From Promethearchaeota archaeon Loki_b32 (lineage in GTDB: Archaea > Asgardarchaeota > Lokiarchaeia > Sigyniarchaeales > SOKP01), in contig NJBH01000003.1 in the NCBI GenBank assembly GCA_005223125.1, positions 64,001-128,000 on the forward strand: a stretch of 64,000 bases of DNA. The letters are read 5' to 3'. Positions within the stretch are counted from its first letter, which is position 1. Every line of letters starts with the position of its first letter. The position numbers and the translations under genes are program-made. Positions 222-43,103 of this stretch are shown here, piece by piece. The notes beneath the pieces were generated by a model. That model searched no databases and was not told the DNA's origin. It saw nothing but the letters and a program-made list of their open reading frames with translations.

Positions 222-779
222 GTGAAACCAATGAATGATACTCATTTAAAATTTGTATTTAAAATAACTGTAATTGGTGATGGTGGAGTAGGAAAAACCT
301 CTCTAATTAAAAAATATACCGAAGGTACTTTTGAGGAAGATTATATATCGACTGTGGGTGCCCAATTTTCTTTTTATGACGAAAAAATCAATGGAGATGA
401 ATGTAAATTATATTTTTGGGATATTGCGGGGCAAAAAGAGTTTGAATTTTTACGTTCAGATTTTTATGAAGAGAGCAAAGCTGCTATTATTGTATGTTCC
501 CTTGAAGAAAATAATCTTGGCAAAGAAAGTCTTAATCACTTAGTAGACTGGTATGAGGATCTTAATAACAACTGTGGTGATATTCCAGTCGTTATCTTTG
601 CCAATAAAGTAGACTTAATTGATGAAGAAAATTTGGATGAAGGTTATGTTCAAAGCTTCATTAAAGAGAAGAATACTATTGGAGTTTATCGAACTTCTGC
701 GAAAACTGGTCAAGGGGTAACCGATGCGTTCAGGAAAATAATAAGAGAACTTTATGAAAAATATAAAAGTAATATATAA
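222..779 (+). CDS. Rab/Ras-like small GTPase
   Basis: G1 GDGGVGKT, G2 STVG, G3 WDIAGQ, G4 NKVD, G5 TSAKTG; no C-terminal prenylation cysteines. Confidence 0.95.
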   Translation: MKPMNDTHLKFVFKITVIGDGGVGKTSLIKKYTEGTFEEDYISTVGAQFSFYDEKINGDECKLYFWDIAGQKEFEFLRSDFYEESKAAIIVCSLEENNLGKESLNHLVDWYEDLNNNCGDIPVVIFANKVDLIDEENLDEGYVQSFIKEKNTIGVYRTSAKTGQGVTDAFRKIIRELYEKYKSNI

Positions 780-817
780 AGTACTTTTAACAAAATTTTA
801 AATTAATTTGAAATTTA

Positions 818-1156
818 ATGGAGGAATTTGCACTTAAAATGCAAGCAGAAGGAATTATTGTTTTTGATTCTCTACAAGAAAAAATTATTTTTTCCGAAGT
901 TCCTCCTCAATTTTCTTCACCTCGTCAAATGGCAATTGGAGGAATGTTAATAAATTTAATCAATAAATTTTCAAATGAATTTGAAGCAGGTGAAGTAAAT
1001 AGTATTGTTATTTCTTCAGAAAATAAAATGATCTCCATCTCAAAAAGAGAACATAAATATATAATCGTGTTATTTCCAATGACAAAAGTAATAGAGCATA
1101 ATATCATTTTAGAGAAAACTGAAGAAATATTTAATTCTGTATGGAATAATGAATGA
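818..1156 (+). CDS. putative longin/roadblock-fold small protein
   Basis: 112 aa with beta-beta-alpha-beta-beta-beta-alpha hydrophobic pattern, next to a small GTPase; fold is inferred. Confidence 0.55.
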   Translation: MEEFALKMQAEGIIVFDSLQEKIIFSEVPPQFSSPRQMAIGGMLINLINKFSNEFEAGEVNSIVISSENKMISISKREHKYIIVLFPMTKVIEHNIILEKTEEIFNSVWNNE

Positions 1157-36909: not shown

Positions 36910-37413
36910 ATGGCTCAATCGGAGGATAGTAAACTGTTTAGCTGTCCAAAATGCGGAACACAGGGTGCTATTATTTTTCTAAAAGCTGAGGGAAATAAAA
37001 TTATTGTAAAACAAAAATGCCCAAAGCATGGAGTGAGAAGTTTTAATATTCCTTTAATGCAAAAAAATCGTTTTATTCCTCATTTTCGTGATGGGGTTTT
37101 TCGGTGTTATCAATGCGGACAAGAAGCTACAGTTATAAGTTCAAAAGCATCAGGTCCTTGGATGTTAATAAAATGTGCTTGTCCAACTCATGGAAACAAA
37201 TTGCCTCTACAAAGAATTTGGAGTACTGTTTACACCGATATTTCTAATAAGGACGCCCCAGCACCACAATCAGTTCAACCACAATCAGTTCAACCACAAT
37301 CAGTTCAACCTCAACCTGCTCCAAGTGACGAAAAGAAGTTTTGTCCTAATTGTGGAACACCACTAAGTGGAACAGATAAACATTGCGACGCTTGTGGCTC
37401 AGAAATAAATTAA
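36910..37413 (+). CDS. multi metal-knuckle protein (two CxxC...CxxHG units + zinc ribbon)
   Basis: CPKC...KCPKHG, CYQC...ACPTHG, PQSVQ linker, CPNCG...CDACG. Confidence 0.8.
   Translation: MAQSEDSKLFSCPKCGTQGAIIFLKAEGNKIIVKQKCPKHGVRSFNIPLMQKNRFIPHFRDGVFRCYQCGQEATVISSKASGPWMLIKCACPTHGNKLPLQRIWSTVYTDISNKDAPAPQSVQPQSVQPQSVQPQPAPSDEKKFCPNCGTPLSGTDKHCDACGSEIN
37263..37307 (+). repeat. 15-bp tandem repeat x3 (ACCACAATCAGTTCA), coding PQSVQ
   Basis: Three exact units read directly. Confidence 0.95.
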
Positions 37414-37451: not shown

Positions 37452-37811
37452 TTAAAAAAATGCATCCATCTTTTTAATTCCCTTTATTTCTTCATAAGTA
37501 ATACCTAGTGGATCTAAGACTTGCTCAAGAGCAGAAATAAGAAGGTCTCTATATTTTTTAATATCTATATCTTGGAGTTTAGCTAGTTCAAGTGCCCTTG
37601 CTCCAATGGATCCCTTACTCTTGATAAAACTTATTGTTTCACCATTTTGGAATTCTTTTCCAGTAGTATTTTTTAATTATAATGCAGCTTTTACATGTTG
37701 AGGAATAACTTTTGTGTAATTTTTAAGAGCCTTCTGTAAGCCAATGTTAATAGCATAATCTTCTAAAGTGAAAGTATTTGGTTTCCCTATCTTCTTTAGA
37801 TTATCTCTTAT
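37452..37811 (-). pseudogene. orphan second copy of the polB 3' end (120 codons, one internal TAA at 37677-37679)
   Basis: Translates IRDNLKKIGKPNTFTLEDYAI...IPQHVKAAL*LKNTTGKEFQ...SALEQVLDPLGITYEEIKGIKKMDAFF*; ungapped ~60% identity to the C-terminus of 40161..43103 by manual alignment. Confidence 0.92.
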
Positions 37812-37821
37812 AAAATAAAAT

Positions 37822-38832
37822 TTAATTTTTTTCAATAAAATCTAATAATGTTGGAGTTCTTTTTAATTCATAAATTTCTTCAATAAATCTTTTCAAATGA
37901 TTAACTAAATTTTTATATTTTATGATATAATTTCCTTGTTCTTCATTGTTAATTGCATAATTTAATTTTACAAACATTTCCATCGCGTCAATTACCCAAC
38001 TTCTTTTTGGAGCTACAAATTGCCTTTCATCATTCGCATGATAGTCCGAGAATTGAGTTCTTAGCCTTTCTGTTAAGTCATCGATATTCACTCGTATCTC
38101 GATTATTTTAATCCCTTTAGATTCCATAAATTCTTCCATTTGTGGATATTGATTAAAAATTCTCGTCCATAAAATTTCCATAGTATATGCAACATTCGGT
38201 TTTACATCATAAAACTTTATTGGATAACGAGGTATTACCTTATTTAATGGAACAAATACAATTGTGCGAAATTTTTCATCTAGATTAACGTCTGTCAAAT
38301 TTCCATATCCTTTTTCTAATGCTAAAGCATAATTGACACCGTAATCTCTATGAAAAGCAATTACAGCAAAATTTTTATTAAAAATCAGCTCCTTTTTCTG
38401 AGATAGATAATCACTTACATGAACTTTCATTCTATAGTGCGTCAAAAGTATGATATCAAAATTATCAATTAATTCATTCTCTGTTTTCCATCCTTTAAGA
38501 TCATCATCATATTTTTGTAATTGTTCAAAATCGTCTTTCCAATGTTCTCTATTTCTGGGAAATGATATTTTTGCTTCACTTAAAATACCATACTCTTCAT
38601 TTAATTGAAGAACCAAATCAGGTATAATTGTATTTTCAGGATTTATACGATTTACCTTTGAGGTATCCATCCTTCGGGCAATAAAACTATACGTATTAGA
38701 TTTGAAATCCATATTCTCATCATCCCATCTTATTACATGAGAAAAACAAATAATTGCTTCTAATGTTTGTTTATAATTATCTATATTCTCTAAGATTTTT
38801 TTAATTCCTCTATTAATTTTGTCTTCTGGCAT
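37822..38832 (-). CDS. putative PD-(D/E)xK nuclease with wHTH-like C-terminus and PIP-like tail
   Basis: IPDLVLQ...ILSEAKIS...EQLQKYD; ends TPTLLDFIEKN. Confidence 0.7.
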   Translation of the reverse strand: MPEDKINRGIKKILENIDNYKQTLEAIICFSHVIRWDDENMDFKSNTYSFIARRMDTSKVNRINPENTIIPDLVLQLNEEYGILSEAKISFPRNREHWKDDFEQLQKYDDDLKGWKTENELIDNFDIILLTHYRMKVHVSDYLSQKKELIFNKNFAVIAFHRDYGVNYALALEKGYGNLTDVNLDEKFRTIVFVPLNKVIPRYPIKFYDVKPNVAYTMEILWTRIFNQYPQMEEFMESKGIKIIEIRVNIDDLTERLRTQFSDYHANDERQFVAPKRSWVIDAMEMFVKLNYAINNEEQGNYIIKYKNLVNHLKRFIEEIYELKRTPTLLDFIEKN

Positions 38833-38833
38833 T

Positions 38834-39955
38834 TTAAGAATAAAAGTCTTTAATAATTCCTTCTCGAAACCAAATAAATATAAAATTACATAATCTTACT
38901 AATGATGCATAAGTAGATCTCATTTGTGGAACAATTGTTATTTTATTATCAGAAAGAATCCAAATATCATAGGAAGAACCATCTCTAAAATCATTGAAAG
39001 AACAATGTAGATATGGATTTAGGTGATAAATAGAAAGAGATGAATATGTGATTTTTTGGAGTGCTTCAATTAATTTCTTATTTTGTTTTTTATCTTTAAA
39101 AACATCAATATTATATTTAATAACGACTGGTTTAGTTTTCAGATTTTCTTCTTTTGTACGTTCTCTATTGTCTAAGATTTTTATATCCGAAGTTACTTTT
39201 GAAATGATATCTCTGACTATATTATTATAAAAAAATCCAAACATTTTATTGCATCTAAAAAATGCATAACGAGAAATTTTACATTTCACATCACTATATA
39301 TATATTTCTTTCTATCATCTTCAAAAGGTTTAATCAAAGTAAATTCAATATAATTAATCCATTCATCATTTTCTCTAGCTTCTTGAAATAATTCTTCGAA
39401 AGGACGATCTGTAAACTTCACTTCTATCTCAAATTCTCGCCTAGCATATTCTTGGACAATTCTGGCTTGTTTTGATAAATGTCGTACTTGTATTTTGGAG
39501 TTTTCTAGTTTTTTCTCTAAATGATGCAGAATTTTTTCCAAATAATTCGAATCTAAAAAAAATCTAGAGATTTTAGGGTAAAATTTATCAAAAAAACTTA
39601 TTATATCATAATGAAAATTTCTATATTTTTCATGAGTGATAAGAATATAAATATTGGGTGTTTTATGTTTAAAAAGGATAAATCTACTAATTCTTGCTTT
39701 CTTACTACCTCTAATTATTTTTGTTAAATTAAATGAATAAATATTCTCTCCCAATTCCTTCTTTTTATATGTAAAATTTTTTAGATTTAAAGTTTCTAAG
39801 ATCTCAAAAATATCAAATTTTGAAGTCAGTATAAGAGTATAAAATTCTTCTCCTATATTTGATAAAATAGATGTTATAGTCTGAATTATTGAATTAATAT
39901 CTTTCTTTTCAATATCATAAAGCCAAGAAAGTGGATCTTCTCTTTTTTTTAACAT
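38834..39955 (-). CDS. uncharacterised 373-aa protein, operon partner of the nuclease
   Basis: Stop 1 nt from nuclease ATG; motif-like C-terminus HLNPYLHCSFNDFRDGSSYDIWIL...IVPQ...SLVRL...FREG. Confidence 0.75.
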   Translation of the reverse strand: MLKKREDPLSWLYDIEKKDINSIIQTITSILSNIGEEFYTLILTSKFDIFEILETLNLKNFTYKKKELGENIYSFNLTKIIRGSKKARISRFILFKHKTPNIYILITHEKYRNFHYDIISFFDKFYPKISRFFLDSNYLEKILHHLEKKLENSKIQVRHLSKQARIVQEYARREFEIEVKFTDRPFEELFQEARENDEWINYIEFTLIKPFEDDRKKYIYSDVKCKISRYAFFRCNKMFGFFYNNIVRDIISKVTSDIKILDNRERTKEENLKTKPVVIKYNIDVFKDKKQNKKLIEALQKITYSSLSIYHLNPYLHCSFNDFRDGSSYDIWILSDNKITIVPQMRSTYASLVRLCNFIFIWFREGIIKDFYS

Positions 39956-40160
39956 TATTTACTATCTATAATAATTAGAATCAAAATATAAATTTTAATT
40001 TAAAGTCAATATTTATTATTTTTTTCATATTACTCCAAACTTAAATAAATATCTAGACTATTAGAGTTCTCTCATTTTTTAATGTATATTTGTCTTTACA
40101 CATTCTTATGATATTTAACTTGGATTTATTTAAATCTTTAATGATTATTTAAAAAATGAA

Positions 40161-43103
40161 TTAAAAAAGTGTTTTTTGAACACTTGGTTCTGCTTCTTCT
40201 TTCTTTTTATACTCTTTTAAAGTAATTTCTTCATATTCAATACCTAAAGCATCAAACAACTGCTCTAATGCTGATTTCAATAAATTTCTATATTTTTTAA
40301 CATTTAAATCTCTAAAACTAGCCAGATCAAAATCTTTAGCTCCAATACTGTCATTGCTTTTGATAAATTTAATATCATCACCTTTTTGATATTCCTTCCC
40401 TGTTATTTTTTTTAGTTCGTTAGCAGCTCTGACATGTTGCGGTATTGTTTTCTCATAAGATTTAAGAGATTTTTGTAATGTTATATAAATTGCATAGTCT
40501 TCTAAAGGAAATTCATCTTCCTTACCTATTTTTTTTCTATTAGCCTTTATAATTTCGATTATAGATTTTCGGGCTTTTAAAAAATCATCATCTGATTTTA
40601 CATTTTTTAATATATCAATTACTTGTCGAAATACTTTCTTAATAAATTCAGGTGTATTTTTTTTTTTAGCTAAGACTCCTTTCATATCAATGTATTTAGT
40701 ATTTTTATAGATACCAACATAATTTTTCTTTCTTTTAGATAATGCTAGAAATTGATAAGTTTTTTCCTCCTCCAAATCAAGATCTAGTTCATTTTTACTC
40801 CATTCAGATAATTGTCTCATTTGATCTTTTGTTGGATTTCTAAGAAAGACAGAATCTGTATCACCATATAATACTTCTATTCCTAATTCTTCTGATTTTT
40901 TAATTGTCTGTTTAATGGAATATTGTCCTATTGAAGTTGTACTTTCAGCCACCGGAAGGCAAAAAAGAGGAAAATTCTTAGATCCAAAAACACCATATGA
41001 ACCATTAATAAAAACTTTAAGAGCTTGTTGAATCGTTTGATAATAACTTCTTTGTTTTTCTGTTAAATTTTTATCACCAGATTTAGGTTTAAAATATTTT
41101 ACTCTTATATCTCGGAAAAAGCCTACGACATATGCAAAGATTCCCATTTTTTGAGTACATATATAGTAGGGGGTTCCTTTTACAAGATTATCTTCATCAT
41201 CCTTATGTGGACACAAAACTGTTTCATATGATAAATTATATTCCTTGATAATGGAAGGATATAGGCTAGCAAAATCCATAACAACGACATCGAAATGAAT
41301 ACCAGGAACAGGTGGAACAACATATGCCCCAGCAAATGTTTTTCCTTCGATAACAGCTTTTGAATATCCTCCTGTTTTTAATTCTGCAATTTCAGATCTA
41401 CGAGGTATAAGATATTTGTTTCTCCTGTGTTCAAAATAAAAAATATTCTGAATCCATGTAGATATTTGGCGCCTTACAGTTTCATGAATAGGCATTTTAG
41501 TAATTCGGCATAATAATAAAATTAAATTCCATACTAATGAATTATTAAATTTAGTTAATTCTAATGTAAGTATTGAATCTTTTAGATTATACCATGTAAG
41601 TATATCATATTCCATTTCGTGTATTTCTTCTTCATGTTCATATTTTTTTTCTCCCAATAGCGCTTCACTTATTGCGTTTAATGAACTGCTTTCATATGCT
41701 CCACCAAATGCATATCCAGAAATACTTCTATTAAAGAAGAAATTAAAGAGATCAATATGGATTCCTTTTCTTAGATCACAGTCAGATCTTGATAGAAAAC
41801 CAAAGCCTCTCTTAACATGGATGGGATTTAAATCTTTATTTATTTTTAACTTATTTGCTCTATGAAACATATAATTTAAGTCAAAATTATCACCATTGAA
41901 TGTGATAATTACAGGATATTCCCATAAAAGACGAAAGGATTCTGTCAATAATTCCTTTTCGCTTTTAAAGAATATAACTTCTGCATCAGATGGAAATTTT
42001 TTATGAAGTCCACGAAAAGCAAATCCTTCTCGTTCTAGTACATAAACTAATTTTAGTCCATCCGAAGCCACAAATGATATACTGATAATTGCTTGTTTTG
42101 CCTGACGAGGATCTGGAATAACAAAATCTTCTGATCCTATACTTACTTCGATATCCATAGCTAACCGTTTCACATCTGGAATCGGAGTGAGAAATATATC
42201 TAAAAACTTTTCCGAAAATTCTTGGATTTCTGGAGATTCATTTTTAAATAGAGCGCGCAATTCTTTTGCCATTCTCTTTGATTCTTCTGAAACCTCTTCA
42301 AAACTTAACTTTTTGATTTGACCACCCTGAATACTATAAATTAATCCAGGAATTAGTTGTCTATCGAAAATATAGTTTAAGTGATATCTAATGTCTGCTT
42401 CCCAAGCTTTTTTATTATTTTTACTTAAAATATTTCTGATATTTGTACCAGAACCTCCAATATCCGAAGGAGTTTTACCATATATTTTTGTCATCGATAT
42501 TTTTTTATCTTTTAGTAGATCTATTTTCTCTATTTCTTCAAATCTAGTAAAACCTTCATATTCTGTTAATTCTATCATATTTTGTAAATCTGTTAGCGTT
42601 TCCTTACTTAAACAATAAGGTTCATGGTCGGTTGTATCAATCCAAATCTTTATATCATCGGTTTCCAAATCATAAAATTTACAGTATGCTTTATTTTGTC
42701 CACCATCATAGTTAACATCAAGCAATATTCCTCGTTCCATATCTTCAACGATTTCTCCTTTTTCAATAAGGTATCGAATATATGTTGAAGAAACATTTTC
42801 TCGTAAAACCTTGGTTAATCTGATATTTCCTTCTTTTAAGCCAAAAAGTTCATTATTTCCTTTAAAAAATAAATTTGAAGGTATTTCTTTTGTAATTTTC
42901 TCTGCTTTTGGAGTTGGTTCTTTAGTTTTCTCTTCTTTTATAATTTTTGGCTTAGCTTTAGGTTTTTCTTCTTTATATTTTTCAGTCTTTACTACTTTTG
43001 GTGTTTCTGGGGATTTTACTTTTTTCTGCTCTTTATCGCTAACAAAGGAAAAAAGCGAGGTTTGTTCCTTATCATTTAGTTTTTTCTTTTTTGGAGGTGG
43101 CAT
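40161..43103 (-). CDS. polB: family B DNA polymerase (PolB1-like)
   Basis: Exo DIEV, FNGDNFD; pol DFASLYPSII, KVFINGSYG, YGDTDS, KKNY; N-terminal DVNYDG...DTTDHEPYCL as in B1 group. Confidence 0.97.
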   Translation of the reverse strand: MPPPKKKKLNDKEQTSLFSFVSDKEQKKVKSPETPKVVKTEKYKEEKPKAKPKIIKEEKTKEPTPKAEKITKEIPSNLFFKGNNELFGLKEGNIRLTKVLRENVSSTYIRYLIEKGEIVEDMERGILLDVNYDGGQNKAYCKFYDLETDDIKIWIDTTDHEPYCLSKETLTDLQNMIELTEYEGFTRFEEIEKIDLLKDKKISMTKIYGKTPSDIGGSGTNIRNILSKNNKKAWEADIRYHLNYIFDRQLIPGLIYSIQGGQIKKLSFEEVSEESKRMAKELRALFKNESPEIQEFSEKFLDIFLTPIPDVKRLAMDIEVSIGSEDFVIPDPRQAKQAIISISFVASDGLKLVYVLEREGFAFRGLHKKFPSDAEVIFFKSEKELLTESFRLLWEYPVIITFNGDNFDLNYMFHRANKLKINKDLNPIHVKRGFGFLSRSDCDLRKGIHIDLFNFFFNRSISGYAFGGAYESSSLNAISEALLGEKKYEHEEEIHEMEYDILTWYNLKDSILTLELTKFNNSLVWNLILLLCRITKMPIHETVRRQISTWIQNIFYFEHRRNKYLIPRRSEIAELKTGGYSKAVIEGKTFAGAYVVPPVPGIHFDVVVMDFASLYPSIIKEYNLSYETVLCPHKDDEDNLVKGTPYYICTQKMGIFAYVVGFFRDIRVKYFKPKSGDKNLTEKQRSYYQTIQQALKVFINGSYGVFGSKNFPLFCLPVAESTTSIGQYSIKQTIKKSEELGIEVLYGDTDSVFLRNPTKDQMRQLSEWSKNELDLDLEEEKTYQFLALSKRKKNYVGIYKNTKYIDMKGVLAKKKNTPEFIKKVFRQVIDILKNVKSDDDFLKARKSIIEIIKANRKKIGKEDEFPLEDYAIYITLQKSLKSYEKTIPQHVRAANELKKITGKEYQKGDDIKFIKSNDSIGAKDFDLASFRDLNVKKYRNLLKSALEQLFDALGIEYEEITLKEYKKKEEAEPSVQKTLF

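Follow-up and report, generated by a model that had tools for sequence, protein, structure and literature searches.

The window analyzed here, a 64,000-nucleotide stretch of the genome of the Promethearchaeota archaeon Loki_b32 (contig NJBH01000003.1, positions 64,001 to 128,000), carries on its minus strand a gene for a family B DNA polymerase (polB) whose last quarter was acquired from another lineage, while the native 3' end of the gene lies downstream as a headless orphan, separated from it by two cargo genes. This locus is probably an endonuclease-less, cargo-carrying derivative of an element resembling the WHO elements of yeasts, moved by ordinary recombination. Together with its relatives, it inclines us, a little more cautiously, toward a broader view in which Asgard archaea independently evolved a homing element of the WHO/HO type from their own polB intein. 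Such an element would be a home-and-rescue drive, its duplicated gene ends would form an integrase-free cargo slot open to exchange between species, and the locus would be one case of a genome-wide gain of genes by tail replacement. Hereafter, G000 denotes the genome of the window, whereas other G numbers and the L numbers denote comparison genomes and comparison loci, respectively; the same-genus relatives of G000 are Promethearchaeota, i.e. Asgard archaea of the Lokiarchaeia type. The locus occupies window positions 37452-43103 and, with the gene next to it, is composed as follows:

43103-40161, minus strand: polB, 980 aa.
40920..43103, minus strand: native polB body, codons 1-728, with the N-terminal extension, exonuclease and polymerase motifs A and B (Pfam DNA_pol_B and exo1).
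40998..41003, minus strand: Gly701/Ser702, the insertion point of inteins in relatives and the site presumably targeted by the endonuclease of this family; its state in G000 is the common, unaltered N-G/S.
40161..40919, minus strand: foreign polB 3' replacement, codons ~729-980, with motif C, thumb and a longer PIP-like tail ending in QKTLF (from change-point, nucleotide identity and tail tree).
39956..40160: AT-rich spacer of 205 bp, 92-94% identical to G076, where relatives hold a convergent endonuclease gene.
38834..39955, minus strand: cargo gene 1, 373 aa, MJECL33/AF_0896-like by structural likeness, with TBP-like/RdgC-like beta-sheet domains.
37822..38832, minus strand: cargo gene 2, 336 aa, MJECL32-like, with a PD-(D/E)XK nuclease fold and a winged helix (motif and fold matches).
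37452..37811, minus strand: orphan, the displaced and headless native polB tail from codon 852.
36910..37413, plus strand: zinc-ribbon gene (Pfam zinc ribbons), the native downstream neighbour of polB.

One of the key questions raised by this arrangement is which of the two tails is native. The orphan begins 10 nt past cargo gene 2, comprises 119 codons plus a stop codon, and aligns without gaps to PolB residues 852-960 at 68/109 aa (62%, E 6e-34) and 67% nucleotide identity, with a single in-frame TAA at 37679-37677, where the live copy encodes Glu896. This agrees with the gene order, the gapless alignment at ~60% aa identity and the lone TAA in place of Glu that had been described in an original prediction made from the letters of this stretch alone. 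The PolB of nearly all relatives terminates in orphan-type sequence, and in the empty-site sister genome G068 the polB gene is directly convergent with the zinc-ribbon gene, as it is in the empty-site relatives G001 and G008. Between G000 and G068, nucleotide identity amounts to 95% for the polB body, 96% for the flanking gene and 87% for the orphan compared with the G068 tail. G000 is sister to G068 in the body tree (99/93) and its orphan is sister to the G068 tail in the tail tree (99/91), whereas the live tail joins those of G032 and G076 (100/97), whose polB bodies are just 75-76% identical to that of G000. Over codons 801-958, the live tail is 88% identical in nucleotides to G076/G032 versus 65-67% to the close natives. 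Furthermore, approximately unbiased (AU) tests reject a grouping of the live tail with G068 (p 4e-59) or with its own orphan (p 3e-4) and, for the body, a placement of G000 beside G076 and G032 (p 8e-118). Given this conflict between body and tail, the G000 PolB is confirmed as a chimera of a native body and a tail from another lineage, and the orphan is supported as the displaced native tail, both as originally proposed. Seemingly duplicated tails in G083 (owing to contig overlap), in G001, in G088 (possible contamination) and in G046:C122 were left out when orphans were counted.

The change-point against G068 falls at codon 729 (727-730), window position ~40919. Consequently, the tail swap envisaged in the original prediction holds with regard to its foreign origin, but its extent is larger than the duplicated ~110 codons: the foreign part comprises ~250 codons, the last quarter of the gene, and includes the YGDTDS motif, motif C and thumb, while native codons ~729-851 are gone from G000. 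The orphan has a ratio of nonsynonymous to synonymous substitutions (dN/dS) of 0.12 against G068, equal to that of native-native pairs, which supports a recent displacement in G000, as had been suspected from its single lesion. A recent local duplication of the polB end, which had already been thought too diverged, is ruled out by the 67% nucleotide identity and the AU rejection of the live tail with the orphan. The earlier failure to see an integrase, transposase or att repeat was likewise borne out, as no recombinase was found among Pfam matches in the cargo, and an exact-repeat search of the locus for att-like or terminal repeats gave only short AT-rich chance pairs. A scan for promoters and terminators gave no excess over shuffles with a sigma-70 model, which is ill-suited to archaea. 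The description of polB as an essential replication gene is not supported here, as PolB is dispensable in Thermococcus (PMC6759347), and a second, divergent family-B polymerase is present on the same contig (G000:C24:150759-152105, an 805-aa frame of 27% identity). In the linker of the zinc-ribbon gene (window ~37270-37320), a 15-bp repeat encoding QSVQP occurs three times and is not found in G068.

The live tail is not confined to this genome. A search with it recovered further genomes in which the alternative tail is followed downstream by another, broken one, and a convergent gene lies directly behind polB in G062, G067, G077, G104, G108 and six metagenomic contigs. All 11 copies of a free-standing LAGLIDADG gene on Promethearchaeia contigs that reach the neighbouring DNA sit right behind polB. 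These genes match Pfam LAGLIDADG_3 and Intein_splicing, and their closest relatives in the class are inteins within polB at Gly701/Ser702 (41-43% identity); polB inteins with junctions of the form ING/C...HN/S-YG or HN/C-YG are found in G050, G145, G153 and G046. The free-standing copies have lost Cys1, which is replaced by Gly, as well as the terminal His-Asn pair, and both LAGLIDADG acidic residues are retained, so they look like active, non-splicing endonucleases. They stop a few residues past the intein-like region and have no C-terminal zinc finger. Judged by these sequence comparisons, we consider it established that a polB intein at 701/702 gave rise to the free-standing, non-splicing gene.

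Residue 701 or 702 is altered in 10/10 carriers with a visible intein-free site versus 15/74 non-carriers, and the alteration goes in the same direction in 8/8 independent pairs. The endonuclease of this family presumably cuts polB at 701/702, and the altered alleles would be immune to it. Among the four carriers tested against a native relative, two switch from native to foreign sequence at codons 696 and 701. Element carriers are dispersed across the body tree (10 changes), where their monophyly is rejected (p 2e-7), whereas a single clade can accommodate their tails (p 0.37); each orphan goes with the native relatives of its own host. Between endonuclease and orphan lie zero to four genes, varying by carrier. 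The tails of G000, G032 and G076 nest inside the endonuclease-linked tails (96/93, 99/92); G076 and G032 have an altered N-A-S site, and G000 has the common unaltered N-G/S.

Several related arrangements were encountered among the comparison loci. In G046, a member of another family, an endonuclease-free mini-intein occupies the same polB site (L107:2820-9610), and a free-standing endonuclease of 1020 aa, with a long extension at its N-terminus, is encoded directly behind this polB; the arrangement is a candidate case of collaborative homing. The armed element of G077 (L077:6970-10891) has four more genes with weak defence-related matches (DarG, E 1.7e-5; AbiEi, E 0.003). In G103, an endonuclease relic of ~38 codons (L170:1831-1944) adjoins a polB whose end is of the native type and whose site is unaltered, which suggests reversion, whereas G031 and G064 (L003 and L148, codons ~699-740) combine a native tail with an element-type altered site and patch, so the resistant patch appears to travel without the element. 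The original expectation that clean excision would be difficult is therefore only partly right, as these relatives show apparent reversion to native tails. Lastly, six genomes of another genus (L085-L090; G139, G136, G143, G117, G145 and G119), one of which has the source intein, possess a long element-like tail, and no free-standing endonuclease or orphan was detected in these six genomes. This clade may hold the origin of the element tail or a domesticated relic of it.

Neither cargo protein matches a profile in the older copy of Pfam used, and their assignment to MJECL33 and MJECL32 denotes a likeness of structure and features; no mention of MJECL32/33 was found in the open-access literature. 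Cargo 1 resembles atlas clusters bearing MJECL33 (TM 0.72-0.78), its other fold matches are weak, including the RdgC-like hits of Foldseek, and PADLOC gave a marginal match to BrxF (E 0.0013) and none for cargo 2. Cargo 2 resembles an MJECL32 atlas cluster (TM 0.60) and matches restriction-endonuclease-like proteins (Z 7-9) and winged helix proteins (Z ~6.5); Foldseek returned nothing significant for it. Its residues P71, D72, E86 and K88, a PD-(D/E)XK motif, are invariant in 22 homologs. Across homologous loci, the pair is always linked and keeps a conserved tandem order, and cargo 1 is probably the partner of cargo 2. The pair also occurs at seven other loci that are not beside polB, once next to AbiJ and DUF4145 genes and once next to a PIN gene. 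Some of these contigs are short, and no displaced gene tail was found around the pair at any of the seven by a search that detected the positive control L122. Because the pair occurs at unrelated loci where no displaced tail was found, we read it as mobile cargo, probably a defence-type load and not a driver specific to polB.

Besides G000, the pair stands beside polB in G076 only. The cargo genes of the two are ~97% identical (cargo 1 96.5% aa) with synonymous divergence (dS) of 0.06 and 0.11, whereas dS reaches 0.74 in the tail and 1.41 in the polB body, which is ~76% identical. Their orphans have a common junction and diverge just after it, the G000 orphan tracking G068 from ~nucleotide 10. 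Since the cargo is this similar and the orphans diverge past the junction, it is evident that the cargo passed recently between species, and the end of the tail and the head of the orphan presumably provided the homology for this exchange. For the G076 species, an independent Logan assembly (L122) spans the whole unit with the same architecture and junction. In this assembly cargo 2 has an internal stop (L122:2298-3308), and the gene is intact in the near-identical G076.

The endonuclease itself appears to be missing from the genome of the window. Neither single-protein nor profile searches found such a gene in G000, which is 95.5% complete, and tblastn and blastn searches of the 205-bp spacer against endonuclease loci for a relic gave nothing meaningful. 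The switch in G000 also lies downstream of the 701/702 site. Because its tail nests within the endonuclease-linked tails and the sites of G076 and G032 are altered, the simplest reading is that the endonuclease was lost. Several observations weigh against the view of the locus as a disarmed homing element that was moved without a cut: 1) the region of codons 700-800 is mosaic even among natives, 2) the narrower G000 interval for the change-point is 700-731, so an earlier cut at 701 may later have been overwritten, 3) G104 and G067 have no clean switch at 701, 4) the 701/702 cleavage target is predicted from ancestry and site changes, 5) a trans-acting endonuclease could lie in the unassembled portion of G000, 6) the G032 assembly has no DNA downstream of polB, 7) the six long-tailed genomes of the other genus are without a detected endonuclease or orphan, and the two included in the tail tree fall among element tails, and 8) the cargo may have passed in either direction between the G000 and G076 lineages.

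Based upon these features, several inferences can be made regarding the history of the locus. In armed carriers, the free-standing LAGLIDADG enzyme, encoded tail-to-tail behind polB, would cut alleles with the common N-G/S site, and repair from the carrier would copy in the altered site together with the foreign polB 3' part and the endonuclease gene, so that the native tail of the recipient would remain cut off downstream. Judging from the nesting in the tail tree, the endonuclease gene would have been lost on the branch leading to G000, G076 and G032, and in G000 and G076 the MJECL33/32-like pair would have taken its slot. The disarmed unit presumably entered the G000 lineage without a cut. 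The transfer itself is evident; its likely mechanism is a homologous crossover near codon 729 combined with a second exchange at most ~15 nt from the cargo-orphan junction, which would have replaced native codons ~729-851 and made the native end the orphan. Live tail and orphan may then serve as homology arms on either side of a swappable cargo slot, and the unit would now spread by drift or through a benefit of its cargo, probably defence.

Displaced tails are not unique to polB in this genome. A search of G000 for genes whose 3' end recurs at most 20 kb downstream found about 28 genes with cargo and a presumably displaced tail, compared with 4 to 7 in three control geometries. The hosts of these islets include ribosomal protein L2 and S-adenosylhomocysteine hydrolase, and the 20 cargo proteins scanned are ordinary accessory proteins (LRR, PIN, small GTPase, oxidoreductases), with no homing endonuclease among the 20. 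Homology-facilitated illegitimate recombination (PMC3240628, PMC5361080) exemplifies the kind of route that these islets suggest, anchored by homology and independent of an endonuclease, and the disarmed polB unit could have been moved in this way. The original interpretation is supported, but it missed both the endonuclease-driven tail family and the commonness of tail displacement in the genome. At ribosomal protein L2 (C4:11912-14540, L190), the cargo is an LRR gene. Another islet lies at the left edge of the window (231-1156; G000:C24:63343-65156, L195), where a 264-aa gene is followed by a Ras/Rab-like small GTPase gene (231-779) and then by a second version of the 3' part of the host gene, 58% identical to it and interrupted by one stop.

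Other histories can be envisaged for the G000 locus. True homing could have occurred at 701/702 in the G000 ancestry, with the cargo later replacing the endonuclease by way of a G076-like allele and codons ~700-728 being reconverted. The cargo is much younger than the tail (dS 0.06-0.11 versus 0.74), so two steps are needed somewhere, and G000 codons 703-728 are closer to G003 than to the sister G068, a patchwork conversion at the site that has similar mosaics in G067. Even so, we regard this course of events as rather unlikely, since it requires an extra event, the orphan has no sign of relaxed selection beyond its one stop, which fits a single recent arrival, and the spacer is without an endonuclease relic. 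A new role for the cargo seems improbable as well. The PD-(D/E)XK nuclease might drive the unit by cutting cassette-free polB, or might be the toxin of an addiction pair in which cargo 1 supplies the antidote, which would suit its invariant catalytic motif and a pair that is always linked and recently moved between species. However, the seven other loci of the pair are not beside polB and, some contigs being short, yielded no displaced tail, its neighbours elsewhere are AbiJ, DUF4145 and PIN genes, and in L122 the cassette persists despite the internal stop in cargo 2.

It is also conceivable that no endonuclease was ever involved and that a foreign polB end with its neighbours arrived by homology-facilitated illegitimate recombination from a lineage whose native tail is simply the long one. 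This process has been described for bacteria (PMC3240628, PMC5361080), and tail-displacement islets with ordinary accessory genes are common in G000. We nevertheless consider this highly improbable, because the donor-type G076 itself carries an orphan sharing this junction, which shows that its long tail is not native either, and because the G000 tail nests among endonuclease-linked tails while the sites of G076 and G032 are altered. The G000 draft consists of 71 contigs with an estimated contamination of 4.6%, which might raise the suspicion of a chimeric assembly of two populations, but the chance of this is practically negligible: the same layout and junction recur in a second species and in an independent assembly, both flanks match a single sister genome, and the reading frame is open across the crossover. 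We therefore retain the reading of the locus as a disarmed element whose endonuclease was lost; what would be particular to this locus is its disarmed state with exchange of cargo, along with a dated transfer across species.

At one archaeal gene, the intein of origin coexists with armed free-standing copies, with relics and with a disarmed copy bearing cargo, which has several implications. The route proposed in yeast from intein to WHO/HO endonuclease rests on one lineage, and archaeal polB would offer another case. With a target predicted to the base and natural alleles predicted to be sensitive or resistant, the route from intein to free-standing homing would be directly testable. The exchange of the catalytic C-terminal quarter of PolB between species whose bodies are ~76% identical also misleads single-gene trees. 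Lastly, the islets point to tail replacement as a frequent, integrase-free means of gene gain in Lokiarchaeia. Within the open papers to which our literature search was limited, no archaeal WHO-like element and no free-standing intein-derived homing endonuclease in Asgard archaea were found.

Among known systems, the polB intein of Haloferax volcanii shares the host gene and homes in vivo by gene conversion that depends on flanking homology (PMC3024317). Unlike that in-frame, splicing intein, the descendant gene described here lies outside the reading frame and is absent from G000. C-terminal displacement by homology-facilitated illegitimate recombination, known from type VI secretion system (T6SS) effector-immunity arrays of Vibrio and from Rhs orphans (PMC5361080, PMC3240628), is similarly integrase-free, with a conserved 5' region anchoring the incoming DNA and the old 3' part being orphaned. 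However, the swapped end in those systems is the selected, variable toxin, whereas the polB tail would only rescue the gene and the payload lies behind it. Mobile endonuclease open reading frames accompanied by an inserted C-terminus occur in fungal mitochondria, at atp6 of Allomyces macrogynus and at atp6, atp9, cox2 and nad3 of Glomus (PMC3630166). They likewise combine a foreign C-terminal part of horizontal origin with a native end displaced downstream (~64% nucleotide identity between the copies there). These hybrids differ from the polB element in being organellar, in not being described as intein-derived and in having no accessory cargo slot.

The closest parallels are the WHO elements of Torulaspora and Lachancea yeasts (Coughlan et al. 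2020, PMC7282813; Osborne, Monnin & Wolfe, bioRxiv 10.64898/2026.08.13.744650). In both systems, an intein-derived, non-splicing LAGLIDADG gene lies downstream of a host gene (in our case in the polB relatives), the element brings a 3' part that substitutes for that of the host, former 3' ends are shifted downstream, where they decay, the 5' and 3' parts of the host gene have different trees, and the target-site sequence changes. The distinctions are equally clear. The host gene is archaeal polB instead of yeast FBA1, the origin is separate, the parent intein being one that polB still harbours, the polB-linked endonucleases have no C-terminal zinc finger, and the elements occur as single copies in contrast to WHO clusters. 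Furthermore, polB orphans start at variable points 120-230 codons past the putative cut, and polB elements carry unrelated cargo genes, the G000 copy having no endonuclease. The polB element would thus operate in the manner of WHO elements without belonging to their group, given its lack of a zinc finger, its other host gene, its separate origin and, in the locus described here, the absence of the endonuclease.

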